IMG/VR virus record: IMGVR_UViG_2693429508_000008
DNA length: 6,533 nucleotides
Source of the DNA: a virus
Taxonomy: Duplodnaviria; Heunggongvirae; Uroviricota; Caudoviricetes
Reading direction: 5' to 3' (one strand)
In this document: positions 40 to 6,533 of the stretch, one piece after another
Layout of the letters: every line of letters begins with the position of its first letter
How positions within the stretch are numbered: position 1 is the first letter of the stretch
The notes under the pieces: generated by a model
Told to the model about the DNA's origin: nothing
The model's database searches: none
The model's input: only the letters and a program-made list of their open reading frames with translations
Made by a program: the position numbers and the translations under genes

Positions 40-786
40 ATGAAAAATATTGCGACAGGAGGCGTTCTGGAGCGTATCCGCAGACTGACCCCACCACATG
101 TAACCGCCCCATTCAGAACGGTTGCGGAGTGGCGCGAGTGGCAACTTGCTGAAGGCCAGAAACGTTGCGAGGAGATCAACCGCCTGAATCGTCAGTTGCG
201 GGTGGAAAAAATCCTGAACCGCTCCGGCATCCAGCCGTTGCACCGGAAGTGTTCGTTTGCGAATTACCGGGCGCAGAACGACGGTCAGCGACATGCACTG
301 AGTCAGGCGAAATCCATAGCTGACGAACTGATGACAGGCTGTACGAATTTTGTGTTCAGCGGTAAGCCCGGCACCGGAAAAAATCATCTTGCAGACGCGA
401 TTGGCAACCGGCTGATGGCGAAGGGGCGTAGCGTGATTATCGTCACCGTGTCCGATGTCATGAGCGTGTTGCATGAGAGCTACGACAACGGCAAATCCGG
501 TGAAAAATTTTTACAGGAGCTTTGTGGTGTTGACCTGCTGGTCCTGGATGAAATTGGCATGCAGCGGGATACGAAAAACGAGCAGGTGGTACTGAACCAG
601 ATTGTTGATCGCCGGACGGCATCGTTACGCGGTGTGGGGATGCTGACAAATATTAACCATGCAGCGATGAATACACTTCTCGGCGAGCGGGTGATGGATC
701 GCATGGTCATGAACGGCGGGCGCTGGGTGAATTTTAACTGGGAGAGCTGGCGTCCGAATGTTAGCCATTCGAGGGTTGTTAAGTAG
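40..786 (+). CDS. DnaC-like replicative helicase loader (phage replication protein, IstB/DnaC AAA+ family)
   Basis: 248-aa ORF with ribosome-binding site GGGGG about 8 nt upstream of ATG. Translation closely parallels E. coli DnaC along its whole length, including Walker A (FSGKPGTGKNHLA), Walker B (LLVLDEIG) and the C-terminal GERVMDRM motif. Confidence 0.9.
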   Translation: MKNIATGGVLERIRRLTPPHVTAPFRTVAEWREWQLAEGQKRCEEINRLNRQLRVEKILNRSGIQPLHRKCSFANYRAQNDGQRHALSQAKSIADELMTGCTNFVFSGKPGTGKNHLADAIGNRLMAKGRSVIIVTVSDVMSVLHESYDNGKSGEKFLQELCGVDLLVLDEIGMQRDTKNEQVVLNQIVDRRTASLRGVGMLTNINHAAMNTLLGERVMDRMVMNGGRWVNFNWESWRPNVSHSRVVK

Positions 787-800
787 TTTCAGGAGGATTT

Positions 801-1223
801 ATGGCGAAACCTTTTACTCCCGAACAGCGGGAAGAACTGAAGACGCGAATTGTGGAACTCGTGCATCAGGACGGTCGGGTCACGATTCGGCAGTTGTCAG
901 ATGAAACAGGTATCAGTCGTGCGTCTGTCGGTCGCTTATGCATAGAACTGGTCGCAAGTGGTGATGTATATAATTCTGGCTACGGCTTATTCCCGTCTGA
1001 ACAGGCTCGCAAGGACTGGCAAAGCGCCCGCAAAAAACTCTCGAGAGTAAAGGTGAGGAAACCGGTTGTTGTTGATCCGGACCTTATCTGGTCATTACCT
1101 GACGGAGAAATACGCCGCTACGACAGGCGCCTGAATATAATCTGTCGCGAGTGCCGGAAGAGCGAAGCTATGCAGCGTGTACTGGCTTTCTATCAGGGTA
1201 ATTTTCAGGAGGCGATACTGTGA
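801..1223 (+). CDS. Hypothetical phage protein, possible N-terminal winged-helix DNA-binding domain
   Basis: 140-aa ORF with strong AGGAGG ribosome-binding site 5 nt upstream of ATG 801, 14 nt after the dnaC-like stop. N-terminal segment TIRQLSDETGISRASVGRLCIELVASG is helix-turn-helix-like; the C-terminal half has a CRECRK motif. No family recognised. Confidence 0.6.
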   Translation: MAKPFTPEQREELKTRIVELVHQDGRVTIRQLSDETGISRASVGRLCIELVASGDVYNSGYGLFPSEQARKDWQSARKKLSRVKVRKPVVVDPDLIWSLPDGEIRRYDRRLNIICRECRKSEAMQRVLAFYQGNFQEAIL

Positions 1224-1637
1224 ATGAAATTAGCTATCAGGCTTCAATTACCGCTGGCATTCGCATCAAAGGAGAGGAGCATGGAAATAAAACCAGAAGA
1301 TGAGTTAAGCAATATCGTTTTATTTCCGGTAAAAGAGGATGACCCTCGTAATCAGGTTAATTTTCTTTATGAGCCATCGGAAAGACCATATTGCCATCAC
1401 GCCTCTGTACGGGTTGACGAAAAAGAGCGTCAGGTCCGCTGTAAAATCTGCGGTGCGGTTGTGGAGCCGTTTGACTGGATGCTCTCTGTGGCAAAAAGAG
1501 AAACCAGACTGGCAGATGATGTAAGGCTATTGCGCCAGGAGGAACAGGAAAGGCGGAGAAATATAGAAAAGCTGATACAGATTGAGCGTAACGCGAAAGC
1601 GCGGATACGCAGGGCGACAAAATCCAGAACTGAATAA
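1224..1637 (+). CDS. Hypothetical phage protein with a possible zinc-ribbon (CHH...CxxC) and a basic coiled-coil C-terminus
   Basis: 137-aa ORF; ATG 1224 directly abuts the upstream TGA (1221-1223) with AGGAGG 11 nt upstream. An alternative start at ATG 1281 (MEIKPEDE...) has GGAG 6 nt upstream. Contains C-H-H...C-K-I-C and an Arg/Glu-rich tail. No family recognised. Confidence 0.55.
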   Translation: MKLAIRLQLPLAFASKERSMEIKPEDELSNIVLFPVKEDDPRNQVNFLYEPSERPYCHHASVRVDEKERQVRCKICGAVVEPFDWMLSVAKRETRLADDVRLLRQEEQERRRNIEKLIQIERNAKARIRRATKSRTE

Positions 1638-1784
1638 TTAAATTTAGCACTGTTAAAAATTTAATCCTTAACCGGAGGGATTTCTGCACCCTCAAATCAT
1701 CAGGAGACCGCCCGAAAGGGCGGGGAGCAGTCACACATCTGTTTCCGATAGCCCCGTTCTAATGCTACACTCTTTGATATTTTT

Positions 1785-2471
1785 ATGACCCCAATAAACA
1801 TATTTATGACAGTTGCTGATTTCAAACGGCCCAAATTGGAGCTCCCAAACGGGGCAAACAAACTACTACTGCACTCTTGCTGTGCTCCATGTTCCGGTGA
1901 GGTGATGGAGGCGCTTCAGGCCTCGGGAATCGACTACACCATCTTTTTCTACAACCCGAACATTCATCCTCAGAAAGAGTATTTAATTCGTAAGGATGAG
2001 AATATTCGCTTTGCTGAACAACACGGCGTGCCGTTTATTGATGCTGATTACGACACAGACAACTGGTTTGAACGAGCCAAAGGAATGGAATGGGAGCCCG
2101 AACGAGGGATCCGTTGCACCATGTGTTTTGACATGCGTTTTGAGCGGACAGCGCTGTACGCCGCTGAAAATGGTTTCAGTGTGATCAGCAGTTCACTGGG
2201 CATTTCACGCTGGAAAAATATGCAGCAGGTTAACGACTGTGGGCGGCGAGCCGTCGCGCATTATCCGGGCATGGTGTACTGGGATTATAACTGGCGCAAG
2301 CAGGGCGGCTCGTCCCGTATGATTGAAATCAGCAAGCGCGAAAAATTCTATCAGCAGGAATATTGTGGCTGTGTGTATTCTCTGCGCGATACCAATCTAC
2401 ACCGCAAATCTCAGGGACGCCCTCTTATCAAAATTGGTCAACTCCACTACGGTAAAGAAGAGAAGGAGTGA
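1785..2471 (+). CDS. queH: QueH-like protein (DUF208; putative epoxyqueuosine reductase, tRNA queuosine biosynthesis)
   Basis: 228-aa ORF containing the [11 protein letters not shown] motif and further conserved Cys residues (CTMCFD, CGC) that I recognise as typical of DUF208/QueH. No obvious Shine-Dalgarno at ATG 1785 or the alternative ATG 1806, so the start is uncertain. Assignment is by motif recall, not by search. Confidence 0.7.
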
Positions 2472-2492
2472 TTTTATGGGGCACCTTTCTGA

Positions 2493-2522
2493 TTGATTTC
2501 ATATTGGCGAGGTAAGTAGAAT
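2493..2522 (+). promoter_or_regulatory. Candidate sigma70 promoter for the hok mRNA (-35 TTGATT 2493-2498, -10 TAGAAT 2517-2522, 18-bp spacer)
   Basis: Hexamers and spacing read directly from the sequence. The predicted start (about 2529) coincides with a 5' element complementary to the 3' end of the hok transcript. Confidence 0.4.
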
Positions 2523-2698
2523 GACTGCGGGTGCTTGAGGCTATCTGCTTCAGGCATGAACACCAAAAGGCAGATAGAGAAAAGCCCCAGTTAACATTAC
2601 GCGTCCGGCAAGACGCTTAACATTAATCTGAGGCCAATTTCATGCTTTGCACATGTAGGTTAGCCTCTTACATGCCGAAAGGCAAGGAGAAGCAGGCT

Positions 2699-2854
2699 AT
2701 GAAGCAGCAAAAGGCGATGTTAATCGCCCTGATCGTCATCTGTTTAACCGTCATAGTGACGGCACTGGTAACGAGGAAAGACCTCTGTGAGGTACGAATC
2801 CGAACCGGCCAGACGGAGGTCGCTGTCTTCGTAGACTACGAATCCAGGAAGTAA
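2699..2854 (+). CDS. hok: Hok/Gef-family type I toxin (small membrane-depolarising peptide), HokD/RelF-like
   Basis: 51-aa translation MKQQKAMLIALIVICLTVIVTALVTRKDLCEVRIRTGQTEVAVFVDYESRK has the Hok signature (hydrophobic helix, then TRK-LCE-R-R-G--EVA-F--YES-K). AAGGAGA ribosome-binding site at 2685-2691. The longer in-frame ORF from 2642 is probably leader sequence. Confidence 0.9.
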   Translation: MKQQKAMLIALIVICLTVIVTALVTRKDLCEVRIRTGQTEVAVFVDYESRK

Positions 2855-2932
2855 GAGTGACCGGGCGGGGAGCTGATCCCATCCCCGCCCACCTCTGATG
2901 TGTCAGGCATCCTCAACGCACCCGCACTTAAC

Positions 2933-2976
2933 CCGCCCATCGCTGTGATCTCTCAGCGTTTCGGCGGGTTTTTTGT
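2933..2976 (+). terminator. Rho-independent terminator at the 3' end of the hok transcript
   Basis: Composite stem CCCGCC (2933-2938)/GGCGGG (2964-2969) with inner stem CGCTG/CAGCG, followed by TTTTTTGTTGTTTATTT. Confidence 0.7.
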
Positions 2977-3103
2977 TGTTTATTTCCGGTGAATTTGATT
3001 CGCGCACCTTCGCAGATAGAATCGACTCACTTAAGTAGCGCGCAGGGAGAAGAGGGATGGACCCCGAACAGGGGAGAGCTATTTATCTGGAAGGATTCTG
3101 AAG

Positions 3104-3391
3104 ATGAAAATCGAAGAATTGCGTGAAATTTTTAGTGAAAATGGCCTCTATGCTGTGCGCGTTGAGAATGGAGCGATTGTCAGCCATTGCCGCATTAGAT
3201 GTTTGCAATCTCAACAAAGGAAGAGCGGTGCTGTGTTATTTTATTTTTGTAATGGACTTCTGACGGACGGTTTTATTTTGCGTGAGGACGAATTTGTCAC
3301 ATCATTACGGGTTTTGAAAGAGATTGGTTTTAAGGCTGGTTTTCTGCTTTTGCTGAAGAATAAACTCATCTACAATCTTGAGCAGGATTGA
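3104..3391 (+). CDS. Hypothetical small phage protein (95 aa)
   Basis: ORF with AAGGA 8 nt upstream of ATG 3104. Its stop TGA (3389-3391) lies 38 nt before the next gene's probable ATG at 3430. No family recognised. Confidence 0.5.
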   Translation: MKIEELREIFSENGLYAVRVENGAIVSHCRIRCLQSQQRKSGAVLFYFCNGLLTDGFILREDEFVTSLRVLKEIGFKAGFLLLLKNKLIYNLEQD

Positions 3392-3429
3392 ACTCCTGCT
3401 GTGTAACACCGTGCCACCGGAGAAAGCCG

Positions 3430-4229
3430 ATGGCACATATACAACTGGTCAAACAAACCTCTTCCGGATTACTTCTCCCGGCGACGCCGGAGAGTTGCGA
3501 TTTTCTGCATCAAATCAAAATAGGTGAGTGGATACACGCAGACTTTAAGCGTGTGTGTAACTACGCATTCCACAAGCGTTTTTTCAAACTCCTGCAACTG
3601 GGTTTCGATTACTGGACTCCGGTCGGTGGGGCGATCACGCCTCGCGAACGAAAACTGGTGTCCGGTTTCGTTGATTACCTGTGTGAATCAGTAGGCCGGG
3701 AACATACGCCAGCTCTGAGCGAAGCCGCAGAGCAATATCTGAATACAGTTGCGACACGCAGAACCAGTGATACGGCATTGCTAAAGTCGTTTGAGGCTTT
3801 CCGCGAGTGGGTAGCCATTCAGGCCGGATTTTACACCGAGCATTTTTATCCGGACGGTAGCCGTGGGTGTCGGGCGAAATCTATCGCGTTTGCGAATATG
3901 GACGAAACCGAGTTTCAGCAGGTTNCGCAGAGCAATATCTGAATACAGTTGCGACACGCAGAACCCGGGATACGGCATTGCTAAAGTCGTTTGAGGCTTT
4001 TCGCGAGTGGGTAACCATTCAGGCTGGATTTTACACCGAACATTTTTATCCGGACGGTAGCCGCGGGCGTCGGGCAAAATCCATCGCTTTTGCGAATATG
4101 GACGAAACCGAGTTTCAGCAGGTTTATAAATCTGTTCTGAATGTGCTGTGGAACTGGATTCTGTTCCGTAAATTTTCCTCTCCGGAACAAGTCGAAAATG
4201 TGGCCGCGCAGCTGCTGGAGTTTGCGTAA
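3430..4229 (+). pseudogene. Conserved lambdoid nin-region protein (DUF1367-like by recollection) with its frame broken by a ~200-bp tandem duplication containing an N
   Basis: Probable start ATG 3430 (GGAGA 6 nt upstream); the ORF-track start at 3388 is a TTG. The reading frame runs to 3942, then the same protein segment (AEQYLNTVATRR...DETEFQQV) recurs in a +2-shifted frame that continues to TAA 4227-4229. Removing one repeat copy would restore a single ORF of about 200 aa. Confidence 0.6.
3726..4124 (+). repeat. Imperfect direct tandem duplication, 2 x 199 bp (3726-3924 and 3926-4124), joined by ambiguous base N at 3925
   Basis: Copies aligned by eye: 11 mismatches in 199 bp (about 94% identity). 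Period is exactly 200 bp. Confidence 0.85.
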
Positions 4230-4519
4230 TGGTGGATTTACGTAAAGCGGCGCGGGGGCAGATGTGCACCGTCAGAATTCCTGGCTACTGCAATCACGAT
4301 CCGGAAACGTCTGTGCTGGCGCATTACCGACTGGCGGGAACGTGCGGAACAGCGATAAAGCCACACGATATGCAGGCAGCGATTGCCTGTAGCTCGTGCC
4401 ACGATTTAATCGACGGGCGGGTAAAAACCAGCGATTACACCAAAGAAGAATTACGCCTGATGCATGCAGAAGGTGTTTTTCGCACACAAGAAATCTGGAG
4501 AAAGGAGGGATATTTATGA
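4229..4519 (+). CDS. ybcO: YbcO-like protein (DUF1364; putative Zn-binding nuclease of lambdoid nin regions)
   Basis: 96-aa ORF. Start ATG 4229 overlaps the upstream stop (TAATG); GGAG 8 nt upstream. Translation MVDLRKAARG...CTVRIPGYCN...ETSVLAH...IACSSCHD matches my recollection of E. coli DLP12 YbcO in length and Cys/His pattern. Confidence 0.75.
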   Translation: MVDLRKAARGQMCTVRIPGYCNHDPETSVLAHYRLAGTCGTAIKPHDMQAAIACSSCHDLIDGRVKTSDYTKEELRLMHAEGVFRTQEIWRKEGYL

Positions 4520-5259: not shown

Positions 5260-5336
5260 GGCCCTTTAGCTCAGTTGGTCAGAGCGAGCGACTCATAATC
5301 GCCAGGTCGCTGGTTCAAGTCCAGCAAGGGCCACCA
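5260..5336 (+). tRNA. tRNA with CAU anticodon (Met or lysidine-type Ile2; likely Ile by analogy with lambdoid-phage ileZ)
   Basis: Cloverleaf folded by hand: acceptor GGCCCTT/AAGGGCC, D arm GCTC...GAGC, anticodon loop CTCATAA, T arm GCTGG-TTCAAGT-CCAGC, encoded CCA at 5334-5336. Resembles E. coli ileX. Confidence 0.85.
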
Positions 5337-5337
5337 A

Positions 5338-5411
5338 CCACCACTAGCTCATCCGGATAGAGCATCAACCTTCTAAGTTGACGGTGCGAGGTTCGAGTCC
5401 TCGGTGGTGGG
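5338..5411 (+). tRNA. tRNA-Arg (anticodon UCU, reads AGA)
   Basis: Acceptor CCACCAC/GTGGTGG, anticodon stem TCAAC/GTTGA with loop CTTCTAA, T arm CGAGG-TTCGAGT-CCTCG, discriminator G5411. The 3' CCA is not encoded (CCT follows). Starts 1 nt after the preceding tRNA. Confidence 0.8.
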
Positions 5412-5416
5412 CCTGC

Positions 5417-5492
<76 letters not shown>

Positions 5493-5495
5493 TAT

Positions 5496-5570
<75 letters not shown>

Positions 5571-6244: not shown

Positions 6245-6522
6245 NNNNNNNNNNNNNNNNNNNNNNNNNNNNNNNNNNNNNNNNNNNNNNNNNNNNNNNN
6301 NNNNNNNNNNNNNNNNNNNNNNNNNNNNNNNNNNNNNNNNNNNNNNNNNNNNNNNNNNNNNNNNNNNNNNNNNNNNNNNNNNNNNNNNNNNNNNNNNNNN
6401 NNNNNNNNNNNNNNNNNNNNNNNNNNNNNNNNNNNNNNNNNNNNNNNNNNNNNNNNNNNNNNNNNNNNNNNNNNNNNNNNNNNNNNNNNNNNNNNNNNNN
6501 NNNNNNNNNNNNNNNNNNNNNN
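6245..6522. other. Assembly/scaffold gap (278 N)
   Basis: Continuous run of n characters; only 11 defined bases follow (6523-6533). Confidence 0.99.
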
Positions 6523-6533
6523 GGCTTCTGACT

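Follow-up and report, generated by a model that had tools for sequence, protein, structure and literature searches.

Two small genes, here termed ORF1 and ORF2, were analysed in a stretch of 6,533 nucleotides (nt) from the IMG/VR virus record IMGVR_UViG_2693429508_000008, the whole of which is referred to as the window. The window comes from a Rac-like lambdoid prophage, and both genes lie on its plus strand in the early rightward operon, ORF1 directly following ydaV, a gene for a DnaC-like helicase loader. The region of interest is 99.8% identical to the chromosome of the Escherichia coli (Shigella-like) strain FDAARGOS_943, and the reference prophage encodes, in order, a cI-like repressor, a Cro/CI family regulator, YdaT, a hypothetical protein and ydaV, then the DUF977 gene, a hypothetical gene (equivalent to ORF2), QueH, hokD, DUF1367 and DUF1364, and finally DUF1133 (a Q-like gene), tRNA genes and the lysis genes. 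On balance, the evidence presented below favours two independent delayed-early accessory genes, with ORF1 as a homologue of the lambda protein Ren and ORF2 as a free-standing member of a putative zinc-ribbon/coiled-coil family, rather than a two-component system. The features on which this view is built at the level of genes are as follows.

40 to 786, plus strand: ydaV, the DnaC-like helicase-loader gene (NCBIfam PRK12377, 504 bits; PHROG 50, 'DnaC-like helicase loader'; RefSeq name ydaV).
791 to 796, plus strand: Shine-Dalgarno sequence AGGAGG, 4 nt ahead of the ORF1 ATG, from direct reading of the sequence.
801 to 1223, plus strand: ORF1, 140 amino acids (aa), a DUF977/Ren-like protein (RefSeq coding sequence WP_001118169.1 at identical coordinates; PF06163, phrog_142).
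1224 to 1280, plus strand: spacer of 57 nt, most likely non-coding (allele variation; absent from the homologues of other genera and from other gene contexts).
1252 to 1723, plus strand: DNA module that travels with ORF2 across phage contexts (ORF2-only matches start at 1252/1253 and end at 1681 or 1723).
1269 to 1279, plus strand: Shine-Dalgarno region AAGGAGAGGAG serving ATG 1281, likewise read directly from the sequence.
1281 to 1637, plus strand: ORF2, 118 aa and a stop codon, a putative zinc-ribbon and coiled-coil protein of PHROG 1621 (RefSeq coding sequence WP_001343130.1; phrog_1621).

ORF1 begins at position 801, shortly after the end of ydaV at 786 and on the same strand, and a scan of the plus strand from 600 to 1900 identified no promoter-like or terminator-like site, and hence none between ORF1 and ORF2. 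As the genes run in the same direction and no such site was found, it is plausible that ORF1 and ORF2 are co-transcribed by read-through from ydaV on the rightward early transcript. Both genes are accessory rather than core, and they occupy a slot that is known for exclusion and counter-exclusion functions. An earlier reading of this DNA, made from the sequence alone (the sequence-only reading), had proposed just such a slot, and this proposal gains substance from the homology of ORF1 to lambda Ren. The same reading recognised neither protein family; ORF1 can now be placed among the DUF977/Ren-like proteins and ORF2 in PHROG 1621, which is catalogued without an assigned function.

ORF1 and the Ren family

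ORF1 matches the Pfam family PF06163 (DUF977) over essentially its entire length (116.5 bits against a cut-off of 22.1, expectation value (E) 1.1e-33; ORF1 residues 1-136 on positions 1-134 of the 134-position model), and it matches phrog_142, named 'Ren-like exclusion protein', likewise over its full length, with an E of 2.7e-44. Some phage records label DUF977 or ORF1-type proteins 'LygF'. The ratio of non-synonymous to synonymous substitution rates (dN/dS) of approximately 0.22 among 22 alleles indicates that the gene is under purifying selection. Two regions of the protein are of particular relevance.

801 to 1046, plus strand: winged helix-turn-helix domain, ORF1 residues 1-82 (AlphaFold2; Foldseek; HTH_24 and HTH_IclR above their Pfam cut-offs).
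1134 to 1193, plus strand: C-terminal motif common to ORF1 and lambda Ren, ORF1 residues 112-131, NIICRECRKSEAMQRVLAFY (BLASTP; alignments).

The N-terminal helix-turn-helix of this 140-aa protein, which the sequence-only reading had pointed out, was confirmed by several routes, in addition to the RefSeq coordinates of the gene. HTH_24 scored 26.0 against a cut-off of 21.9 (E 7e-6) and HTH_IclR 23.1 against 22, and the AlphaFold2 model contains helices at residues 7-24, 29-36 and 40-53, a beta wing and then a helix at 67-82. The predicted local distance difference test score (pLDDT), averaged over blocks, was 92-95 for residues 11-70, 76 for residues 1-10 and 86 for residues 71-80. The top Foldseek matches of the model were winged helices of the IclR, GntR and MarR types (probability 1.0, E approximately 0.01). 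ORF1 does not qualify as a member of a MarR/IclR-type regulator family, as MarR_2 scored 21.7 against a cut-off of 27 and no IclR effector domain was found, and its scores against the regulator models of NCBIfam were far under the cut-offs.

DUF977 DNA is present in 3,617 of the 5,426 complete E. coli genomes (67%), and among these members ORF1 displays nothing distinctive except that the DNA of its N-terminal third is more diverged. The similarity of ORF1 DNA to most E. coli DUF977 genes starts only at approximately nucleotide 141 of the gene, and coverage of at least 80% was reached in only 87 genomes, for which reason the N-terminal winged-helix part (window 801-940, the first third of ORF1) appears much more diverged in its DNA than the remainder; this part may travel with the upstream replication module. 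At the opposite end of the protein, most residues of the C-terminal motif are invariant in the DUF977 alignment (R116, A123, Q125, V127 and A129 vary), and the motif is also conserved within the alignment of Ren proteins.

Judged by its sequence, ORF1 is a member of the Ren family, since the two proteins share a PHROG, a profile-profile match, a C-terminal motif and a ren-like position. Lambda Ren (gene ren, NP_040633, from NC_001416) matches phrog_142 over its full length with an E of 1.6e-41. Comparison by hhalign of a DUF977 profile built from 31 proteins with a Ren profile built from 20 gave a probability of 96.5% and an E of 1e-9 over 87 columns, in which ORF1 residues 16-131 are aligned with Ren residues 6-92 and approximately 40 central residues of ORF1 are additional. 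In a BLASTP comparison, the ORF1 motif NIICRECRKSEAMQRVLAFY and residues 73-92 of lambda Ren, NLVFKECRQSAAMKRVLAVY, are identical at 12 of 20 positions (E 3e-7). The two proteins are thus alike in possessing an N-terminal winged-helix region and a C-terminal ECRxSxxMxRVLAxY motif, and their genes in lying immediately behind the helicase-loader gene in the rightward early transcript; in lambda, ren and the end of P overlap, and in the window ORF1 follows ydaV. They differ in length (140 aa for ORF1 against 96 aa for Ren, the additional 40 or so residues of ORF1 lying between the winged helix and the C-terminal helix) and in the loader that is encoded upstream (DnaC-like for ORF1, lambda P for Ren), and their pairwise identity is limited to approximately 20 residues. 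Lambda Ren reportedly relieves Rex exclusion and the phenotypes caused by RexAB (Toothman and Herskowitz, 1980; Thomason and Court, 2022). The ren gene is non-essential in lambda (PMC10695390), as is expected for a gene in an accessory region.

The Rac prophage of E. coli K-12 carries ydaW in the same slot after ydaV, and the product, as ORF1 does, contains winged-helix-like segments. YdaW was considered as a possible orthologue of ORF1 and rejected, being a member of DUF1627 (phrog_630) with a BLASTP E of 0.054 against ORF1; in Salmonella, DUF1627 and DUF977 genes are both present, in tandem. Over-expressed YdaW is reported to block RcaT, the toxin of retron-Sen2 (bioRxiv 10.1101/2020.06.22.160242), from which it follows that a gene at this position can act in counter-defence. 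Since the two proteins belong to different families, YdaW is a positional analogue only, and the retron result is not transferable to ORF1.

Start codon, architecture and relatives of ORF2

The sequence-only reading had described ORF2 as a 137-aa protein joined to ORF1 without a gap. An open reading frame of this length is indeed present at 1224-1637, and its ATG abuts the TGA of ORF1; however, the true start is most likely ATG 1281, which gives a protein of 118 aa and separates the genes by 57 nt. RefSeq starts the gene at 1281, as does every homologue in the alignment from outside E. coli and Shigella at the equivalent position. One E. coli homologue of 132 aa (P0009) has GTG (V) at the position equivalent to 1281 and was called from an upstream ATG. 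The match to phrog_1621 (E 5.1e-56) begins at residue 20 of the long form, extending over residues 20-136 of that form on positions 1-120 of the 134-position profile. The sequence AAGGAG at 1269-1274 lies 6 nt ahead of ATG 1281, compared with 11 nt between ATG 1224 and the closest Shine-Dalgarno-like sequence ahead of it, and the Shine-Dalgarno region is kept in most spacer alleles (those of loci L039 and L062 alter its 3' half). Furthermore, in the 48 loci that share this junction, position 1224 opens with ATG in 21 cases, with GTG in 23 and with GTA, which is no start codon, in four; substitutions in the 57-nt spacer are mostly non-synonymous; and copies of ORF2 in other gene contexts have DNA in common with the window only from approximately 1252 onward. 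On the basis of the RefSeq call, the homologues, the PHROG alignment, the spacer alleles and the limit of the shared DNA, the start at 1224 was rejected.

Three elements were recognised in the 118-aa form, to which all ORF2 residue numbers given here refer.

1296 to 1328, plus strand: acidic N-terminal motif, ORF2 residues 6-16, EDELSNIVLFP, with the family-wide form D..N(V/I)(V/I)xF(P) (alignments).
1392 to 1460, plus strand: putative zinc ribbon C-x-H-x13-C-x2-C, ORF2 residues 38-60 (ligand conservation; beta hairpin in the model).
1467 to 1631, plus strand: single long helix, ORF2 residues 63-117, with a heptad core and the exposed motif E102-R-N-A-K-A-R-I-R-R111 (AlphaFold2; alignment).

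Residues E6, F15 and P16 of the N-terminal motif are invariant in 37 enterobacterial homologues, and its positions 8, 12, 13 and 15 are conserved in 119 diverse relatives; the region has a low pLDDT in the AlphaFold2 model. The 119 relatives also conserve the putative zinc ligands, C38, C54 and C57 in every case and H40 in 93% (with Cys in the remainder), and the model places a beta hairpin at residues 43-54. The CHH...CxxC motif of the putative zinc ribbon and the basic tail, which had been noticed in the first reading of the sequence, are likewise sound, the tail forming part of the long helix, with a pLDDT of 85-96 over residues 71-110 and a net charge of +5 over residues 99-118. Hydrophobic or small residues recur along this helix in unbroken heptads (84/88/91/95/98/102/105/109/112) in the 119 relatives, and the exposed residues E102, R103, N104, K106, R108, R110 and R111 are conserved or near-invariant, with E102, N104, K106 and R108 in the latter group. 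R50, a DPFD motif at 62-65 and A71 further define the family among these diverse members. A dN/dS of approximately 0.056 across 50 alleles indicates purifying selection.

The ORF2 family has a wide reach. In addition to phrog_1621, which is also matched by the Serratia and Yersinia homologues, ORF2 matches PHROG 8538 and PHROG 4865 more weakly, and all three are catalogued as 'unknown function'. A set of 148 homologues represents Escherichia, Shigella, Salmonella, Klebsiella, Kluyvera, Serratia, Yersinia, Erwinia, Pluralibacter and Morganella, to which a genome contig scan, limited to 12 loci by its very specific search pattern (KLIQIERN), added Photorhabdus and a candidate in Pantoea. A profile search of 1.84 billion cluster representatives returned 1,591 clusters (at 50% identity) with an E of at most 1e-3 and 256 with an E of at most 1e-10, and the viral contigs that carry relatives differ widely in base composition (49-72% G+C). 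As regards the gene context of distant relatives in IMG/VR, one scan was dominated by E. coli loci and the other was uninformative, comprising five metagenomic contigs of which four exceeded 60% G+C, where simple calling of open reading frames is unreliable.

Profile searches and structure prediction, by which the sequence-only reading had proposed to place both proteins, led to the Ren family and a winged-helix fold for ORF1, and to no characterised relative for ORF2. The only Pfam matches of ORF2 are sub-threshold, namely the TFIIB-type Zn_Ribbon_TF (PF08271; 21.5 bits, cut-off 29), which attains an E of at most 0.01 in only 18 of 118 diverse family members, and Ribosomal_S27e (13.5 bits, cut-off 24.5). 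The best Foldseek match of the model, to 1pft, is weak (E 0.24, probability 0.91, 27 columns), and ORF2 has no match in NCBIfam or PADLOC. Comparable small zinc-finger regulators encoded by phages are P2 Ogr, Mu Com and lambda Orf73 of the TraR-DksA type, proteins of approximately 60-120 aa with one zinc site of four ligands, whose target is RNA polymerase or mRNA. ORF2 is unlike these regulators in its ligand spacing (C-x-H-x13-C-x2-C) and in its layout of a ribbon followed by one long helix, so that the analogy is one of kind only; in DksA/TraR a C4 zinc finger follows a coiled-coil hairpin, whereas in ORF2 the order is reversed and the helix is single. No match with an E of at most 1 was obtained between ORF2 and the Pfam models of small phage zinc-finger regulators, including the DksA/TraR type.

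Facultative linkage of ORF1 and ORF2

The DNA of ORF2 was identified in 1,679 of the 5,426 complete E. coli genomes and the ORF1-ORF2 junction in 975, and the pairing is facultative: these are two independent genes and not a fixed pair. Matches that cover only DUF977 stop at approximately 1209-1212 and matches that cover only ORF2 begin at approximately 1252, which places recombination breakpoints between the genes. Among 80 viral contigs of IMG/VR with a near-identical ORF2, the gene directly upstream encodes DUF977 in 36, an Ea22-like protein in 37 and another product in six; where it is Ea22-like, it either overlaps ORF2 by 23 nt or is separated from it by 1 nt. Many loci of the Ea22 type keep DUF977 further upstream, in the order ydaV, DUF977, DUF4406, Ea22-like, ORF2. 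Between DUF977 and ORF2 lies a slot for variable cargo, which is empty in the window, filled by DUF4406 and an Ea22-like gene in some E. coli phages (locus L008, positions 56-1661) and, in Salmonella (locus L100, positions 1413-4354), by an Ea22-like gene, a methyltransferase-like gene that is disrupted, and an open reading frame of 339 aa. The Salmonella order is DnaC-like, DUF1627, DUF977, three genes and ORF2, with 2.2 kb between DUF977 and ORF2.

In other phages ORF2 is found at quite different map positions. In phage ArgO145 its place is in the leftward early region, where it follows an Ea22-like gene and overlaps the 3' end of that gene by 23 nt. Near-identical DNA of ORF2 occurs at a comparable map position in Stx2a phages, the records of which are unannotated there. 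The arrangement is NinG-ORF2-YlcG-Q in Klebsiella, RusA-ORF2-Q in Serratia and NinG-NinH-ORF2-75 aa-Q in Yersinia. In Erwinia, Pantoea and Kluyvera, ORF2 stands among apparent nin-region genes just before a Q-like gene, the neighbours having been named by eye from their translations. No DUF977 gene was found in the ORF2 loci of Klebsiella, Serratia, Yersinia, Erwinia and Pantoea, and the Kluyvera locus shows only approximately 500 bases upstream. ORF2 thus forms a complete module of its own, which recombination carries into several slots among the early genes.

ORF2 is also encountered within larger proteins. Fusions with Ead/Ea22-like proteins (PF13935), of which ORF2 occasionally forms the C-terminal domain and to whose genes it is often adjacent or overlapping, include P0002 and P0043, which match PF13935 together with PF08271; P0004, which matches PF13935; and P0241 (256 aa), which has no precomputed Pfam data. 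In P0002, P0004 and P0241 the junction is the same, with ...AELEAR followed directly by EIKPEDELSN. ORF2 of the window itself has no PF13935 match and no Ea22 N-terminal domain. Chimeras in the reversed order, with ORF2 N-terminal and DUF977 C-terminal, were observed in P0040 and P0042 (ORF2 residues 1-85) and P0060 (residues 1-72). The chimeric proteins indicate frequent recombination or frameshifting around ORF2.

The sequence-only reading had tentatively suggested that a regulator is here paired with a zinc-ribbon effector, a suggestion that is largely refuted by the co-occurrence data (975 junctions against 1,679 genomes with ORF2 and 3,617 with DUF977) and by the observation that about half of the near-identical ORF2 copies follow an Ea22-like gene instead. 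A functional two-gene module, in which ORF1 as a winged-helix regulator or antitoxin would control ORF2 as a zinc-ribbon effector or toxin, is consequently considered very improbable. It could appeal to the abutting genes of the 975 E. coli genomes and of 36 of the 80 viral contigs, to the presence of DUF977 upstream in the same operon in many other loci, including Salmonella, and to a superficial likeness to a small toxin preceded by its DNA-binding antitoxin. Against it stand the 704 of 1,679 ORF2 genomes that lack the junction and the 73% of DUF977 genomes that lack an adjacent ORF2, the loci of Stx phages (leftward early region) and of five other genera (nin regions) in which ORF2 has no DUF977 close by, the breakpoints between the two genes, the insertion of other genes between them in many phages, and the failure of either protein to match a defence or toxin-antitoxin model. 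A toxin role for ORF2 that depends on ORF1 is similarly disfavoured by the many contexts in which ORF2 is found apart from ORF1. In PADLOC, ORF2 matched no family and ORF1 gave only weak matches at the level of the helix-turn-helix (E of 0.0017 or greater). As co-occurrence is not obligate and PADLOC holds no matching models, a toxin-antitoxin or defence pair was rejected.

The Ea22 fusions raise another explanation, in which ORF2 would be the C-terminal module of Ead/Ea22-like proteins, detached from them and acting in the same pathway as Ea22. The described layout of Ea22, in which a coiled coil joins an N-terminal domain to a C-terminal domain that varies, and its pro-lysogenic effect (PMC10834534) would accommodate such a module; the reported action of Ea22 is to shift lambdoid phages toward lysogeny via a host partner (PMC10834534). 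In-frame fusions of the Ea22 N-terminus and coiled coil to a full-length ORF2 (P0002, P0004, P0043 and P0241), the 23-nt overlap in ArgO145 and the position directly after Ea22-like genes in 37 of 80 contigs are all in agreement with it. However, the fusions are rare (the clusters of P0002, P0004 and P0043 have one member each, and P0241 is known only as the representative of a cluster at 50% identity) and could be frameshift artefacts, ORF2 possesses its own ribosome-binding site and start, and in other genera it is a free-standing gene beside Q whose neighbours include none annotated or recognised as Ea22-like. Additionally, ORF2-family profiles gave no meaningful match to solved chains, although a nuclear magnetic resonance structure of the C-terminal domain of lambda Ea22 has been reported (PMC10834534). 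An origin of this kind is therefore regarded as unlikely.

Proposed functions and the surrounding genes

Returning to two independent accessory genes, the biochemical activities, oligomeric state and targets that we infer for their products would be as follows. ORF1, by analogy with Ren, would be a non-essential factor in lytic growth that shields phage development from an abortive-infection or exclusion function of the Rex type, its winged helix providing recognition of DNA or of a partner alongside the conserved C-terminal helix. ORF2 would oligomerise through the heptad core of its long helix, have its fold held by the Cys-His-Cys-Cys zinc ribbon, and present the near-invariant Glu/Asn/Lys/Arg face (ERNAKARIRR) to a target that is conserved across bacteria, nucleic acid or the transcription/translation machinery being the favoured candidates. 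The acidic N-terminal D..NVVxFP peptide may serve as a docking or autoregulatory element.

Several points weigh against this reading. For ORF1, lambda Ren falls below the Pfam threshold for DUF977, ORF1 contains the insertion of approximately 40 residues, and its C-terminal half is poorly modelled (AlphaFold2 pLDDT 42-64); a function equivalent to that of Ren is accordingly not assured. Moreover, no RexAB-like genes, which could be the natural target of a Ren-like activity, were present within the 19 kb of the reference prophage that was inspected. With respect to independence, the adjacency of the genes in 975 genomes, and their presence in the same operon in many more, would be compatible with a loose functional relationship. 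For ORF2, the Pfam scan yielded no family that covers the protein or 118 diverse members of its family; comparison of narrow and broad family profiles with PDB sequences gave coiled-coil noise only; and Foldseek searches of the model against the PDB and the viral predicted structures of BFVD gave no match with an E of at most 0.001. None of these searches supplied a functional anchor for ORF2, and an acidic protein would be as suitable a ligand for its conserved basic helix as nucleic acid.

This last point leads to a different view of ORF2, doubtful yet deserving of consideration, as a protein-protein inhibitor for host takeover or counter-defence that would dock via D..NVVxFP and/or the zinc ribbon, the long helix serving for oligomerisation only; RNA polymerase, a replication or division factor and a defence protein are its candidate targets. 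The protein is small and looks non-essential, and it moves among the accessory slots of temperate phages, as might an inhibitor. Its short N-terminal motif resembles a docking peptide in that it lies in a low-confidence, probably disordered region, and its zinc ribbon is closest, through weak matches, to the TFIIB type, an RNA polymerase-binding ribbon of archaea and eukaryotes. Very strong purifying selection would suit a conserved partner. Conversely, no likeness to a known anti-defence or host-takeover protein emerged from PADLOC or from the fold searches, and the most conserved surface of ORF2 is rich in Arg, Lys and Asn, which is more typical of nucleic-acid binding. A more specific proposal, speculative and on present evidence improbable, is that the ORF2 family is a new class of small phage nucleic-acid-binding regulators, in which the C-terminal ERNAKARIRR helix binds RNA or DNA and the protein controls the late switch or a host process. 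A role in the late-gene switch fits the recurrent position of ORF2 just upstream of the gene for the Q antiterminator, and ERNAKARIRR presumably resembles the arginine-rich peptides of the NAKTRR type in the N proteins of lambdoid phages. As such a regulator, ORF2 would be a zinc-ribbon-capped coiled coil, which may sometimes be delivered as the C-terminal module of Ea22-like proteins.

Beyond these two genes, a further feature lies in the 168-nt gap (1638-1805) between the end of ORF2 at 1637 and the RefSeq start of QueH at 1806.

1708 to 1723, plus strand: GC hairpin ccgccc-GAAA-gggcgg without a T-run (sequence; RNA fold), not called as an intrinsic terminator.

DNA that the window has in common with many phages, including an Actinobacillus phage, stops exactly at 1723, and the hairpin could be a boundary of mosaic exchange or an analogue of a nin-region terminator. 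Its fold is not significantly more stable than that of shuffled sequence (z = -1.67). The possibility that it is an RNA site linked to ORF2 was dropped, since the DNA shared by the Stx-phage copies stops at 1681 and the copies in nin regions directly precede other genes.

ORF1 and ORF2 are ordinary lambdoid accessory content, with ORF1 belonging to a known, poorly understood family. Right after ORF2, the prophage carries as cargo a gene for the epoxyqueuosine reductase QueH (1785-2471, with the RefSeq start at 1806; PF02677, E 2e-65), which shares the prophage with a cluster of four tRNA genes at 5260-5570: Met(CAT), Arg(TCT), Thr(TGT) and Gly(TCC). The CAT tRNA is probably of the lysidine-modified Ile2 type, since RefSeq annotates it as tRNA-Ile. 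A hok/sok type I toxin-antitoxin locus occupies 2529-2854, where the hokD-like toxin reading frame ends at 2854 and Rfam sok scores 117 bits at 2529-2704 on the plus strand. The DUF1367 gene contains, at 3726-4124, a 200-bp tandem duplication (3726-3924 and 3926-4124, 94% identical) with a single N at 3925 joining the copies; in the reference prophage this gene is intact at 600 nt, and the duplication, which disrupts the reading frame, was most likely introduced during assembly or scaffolding. In the reference strain an IS1 element lies between the Q-like DUF1133 gene and the tRNA genes, and none is present there in the window. The window contains 279 non-ACGT positions, and a run of ambiguous bases begins at 6245, for which reason its end (6245-6533) is not real sequence. 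In the part of the reference prophage upstream of the window (locus L001, 7051-7473), a Cro/CI family regulator is found at the position of ydaS in K-12, near the immunity region, beside which a 'toxin YdaT family protein' is also encoded; Rha and YdaE family proteins are further products of this prophage. The reference prophage carries several insertions of IS600, IS1 and IS2 and is therefore defective.

The outcome mostly tidies the record, in that what had seemed a mystery pair becomes a Ren-family gene and a separately mobile orphan gene, the latter with a corrected start. The tie between DUF977 and Ren provides a testable function, namely the relief of Rex-type exclusion, for a family with DNA in 67% of complete E. 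coli genomes. The ORF2 family is a very widespread phage family that is under strong purifying selection and has no Pfam entry, structure or phenotype, which makes it a reasonable candidate for a first biochemical characterisation. Should the proposal of a nucleic-acid-binding regulator prove true, the family would represent a new class of small phage nucleic-acid-binding factor.

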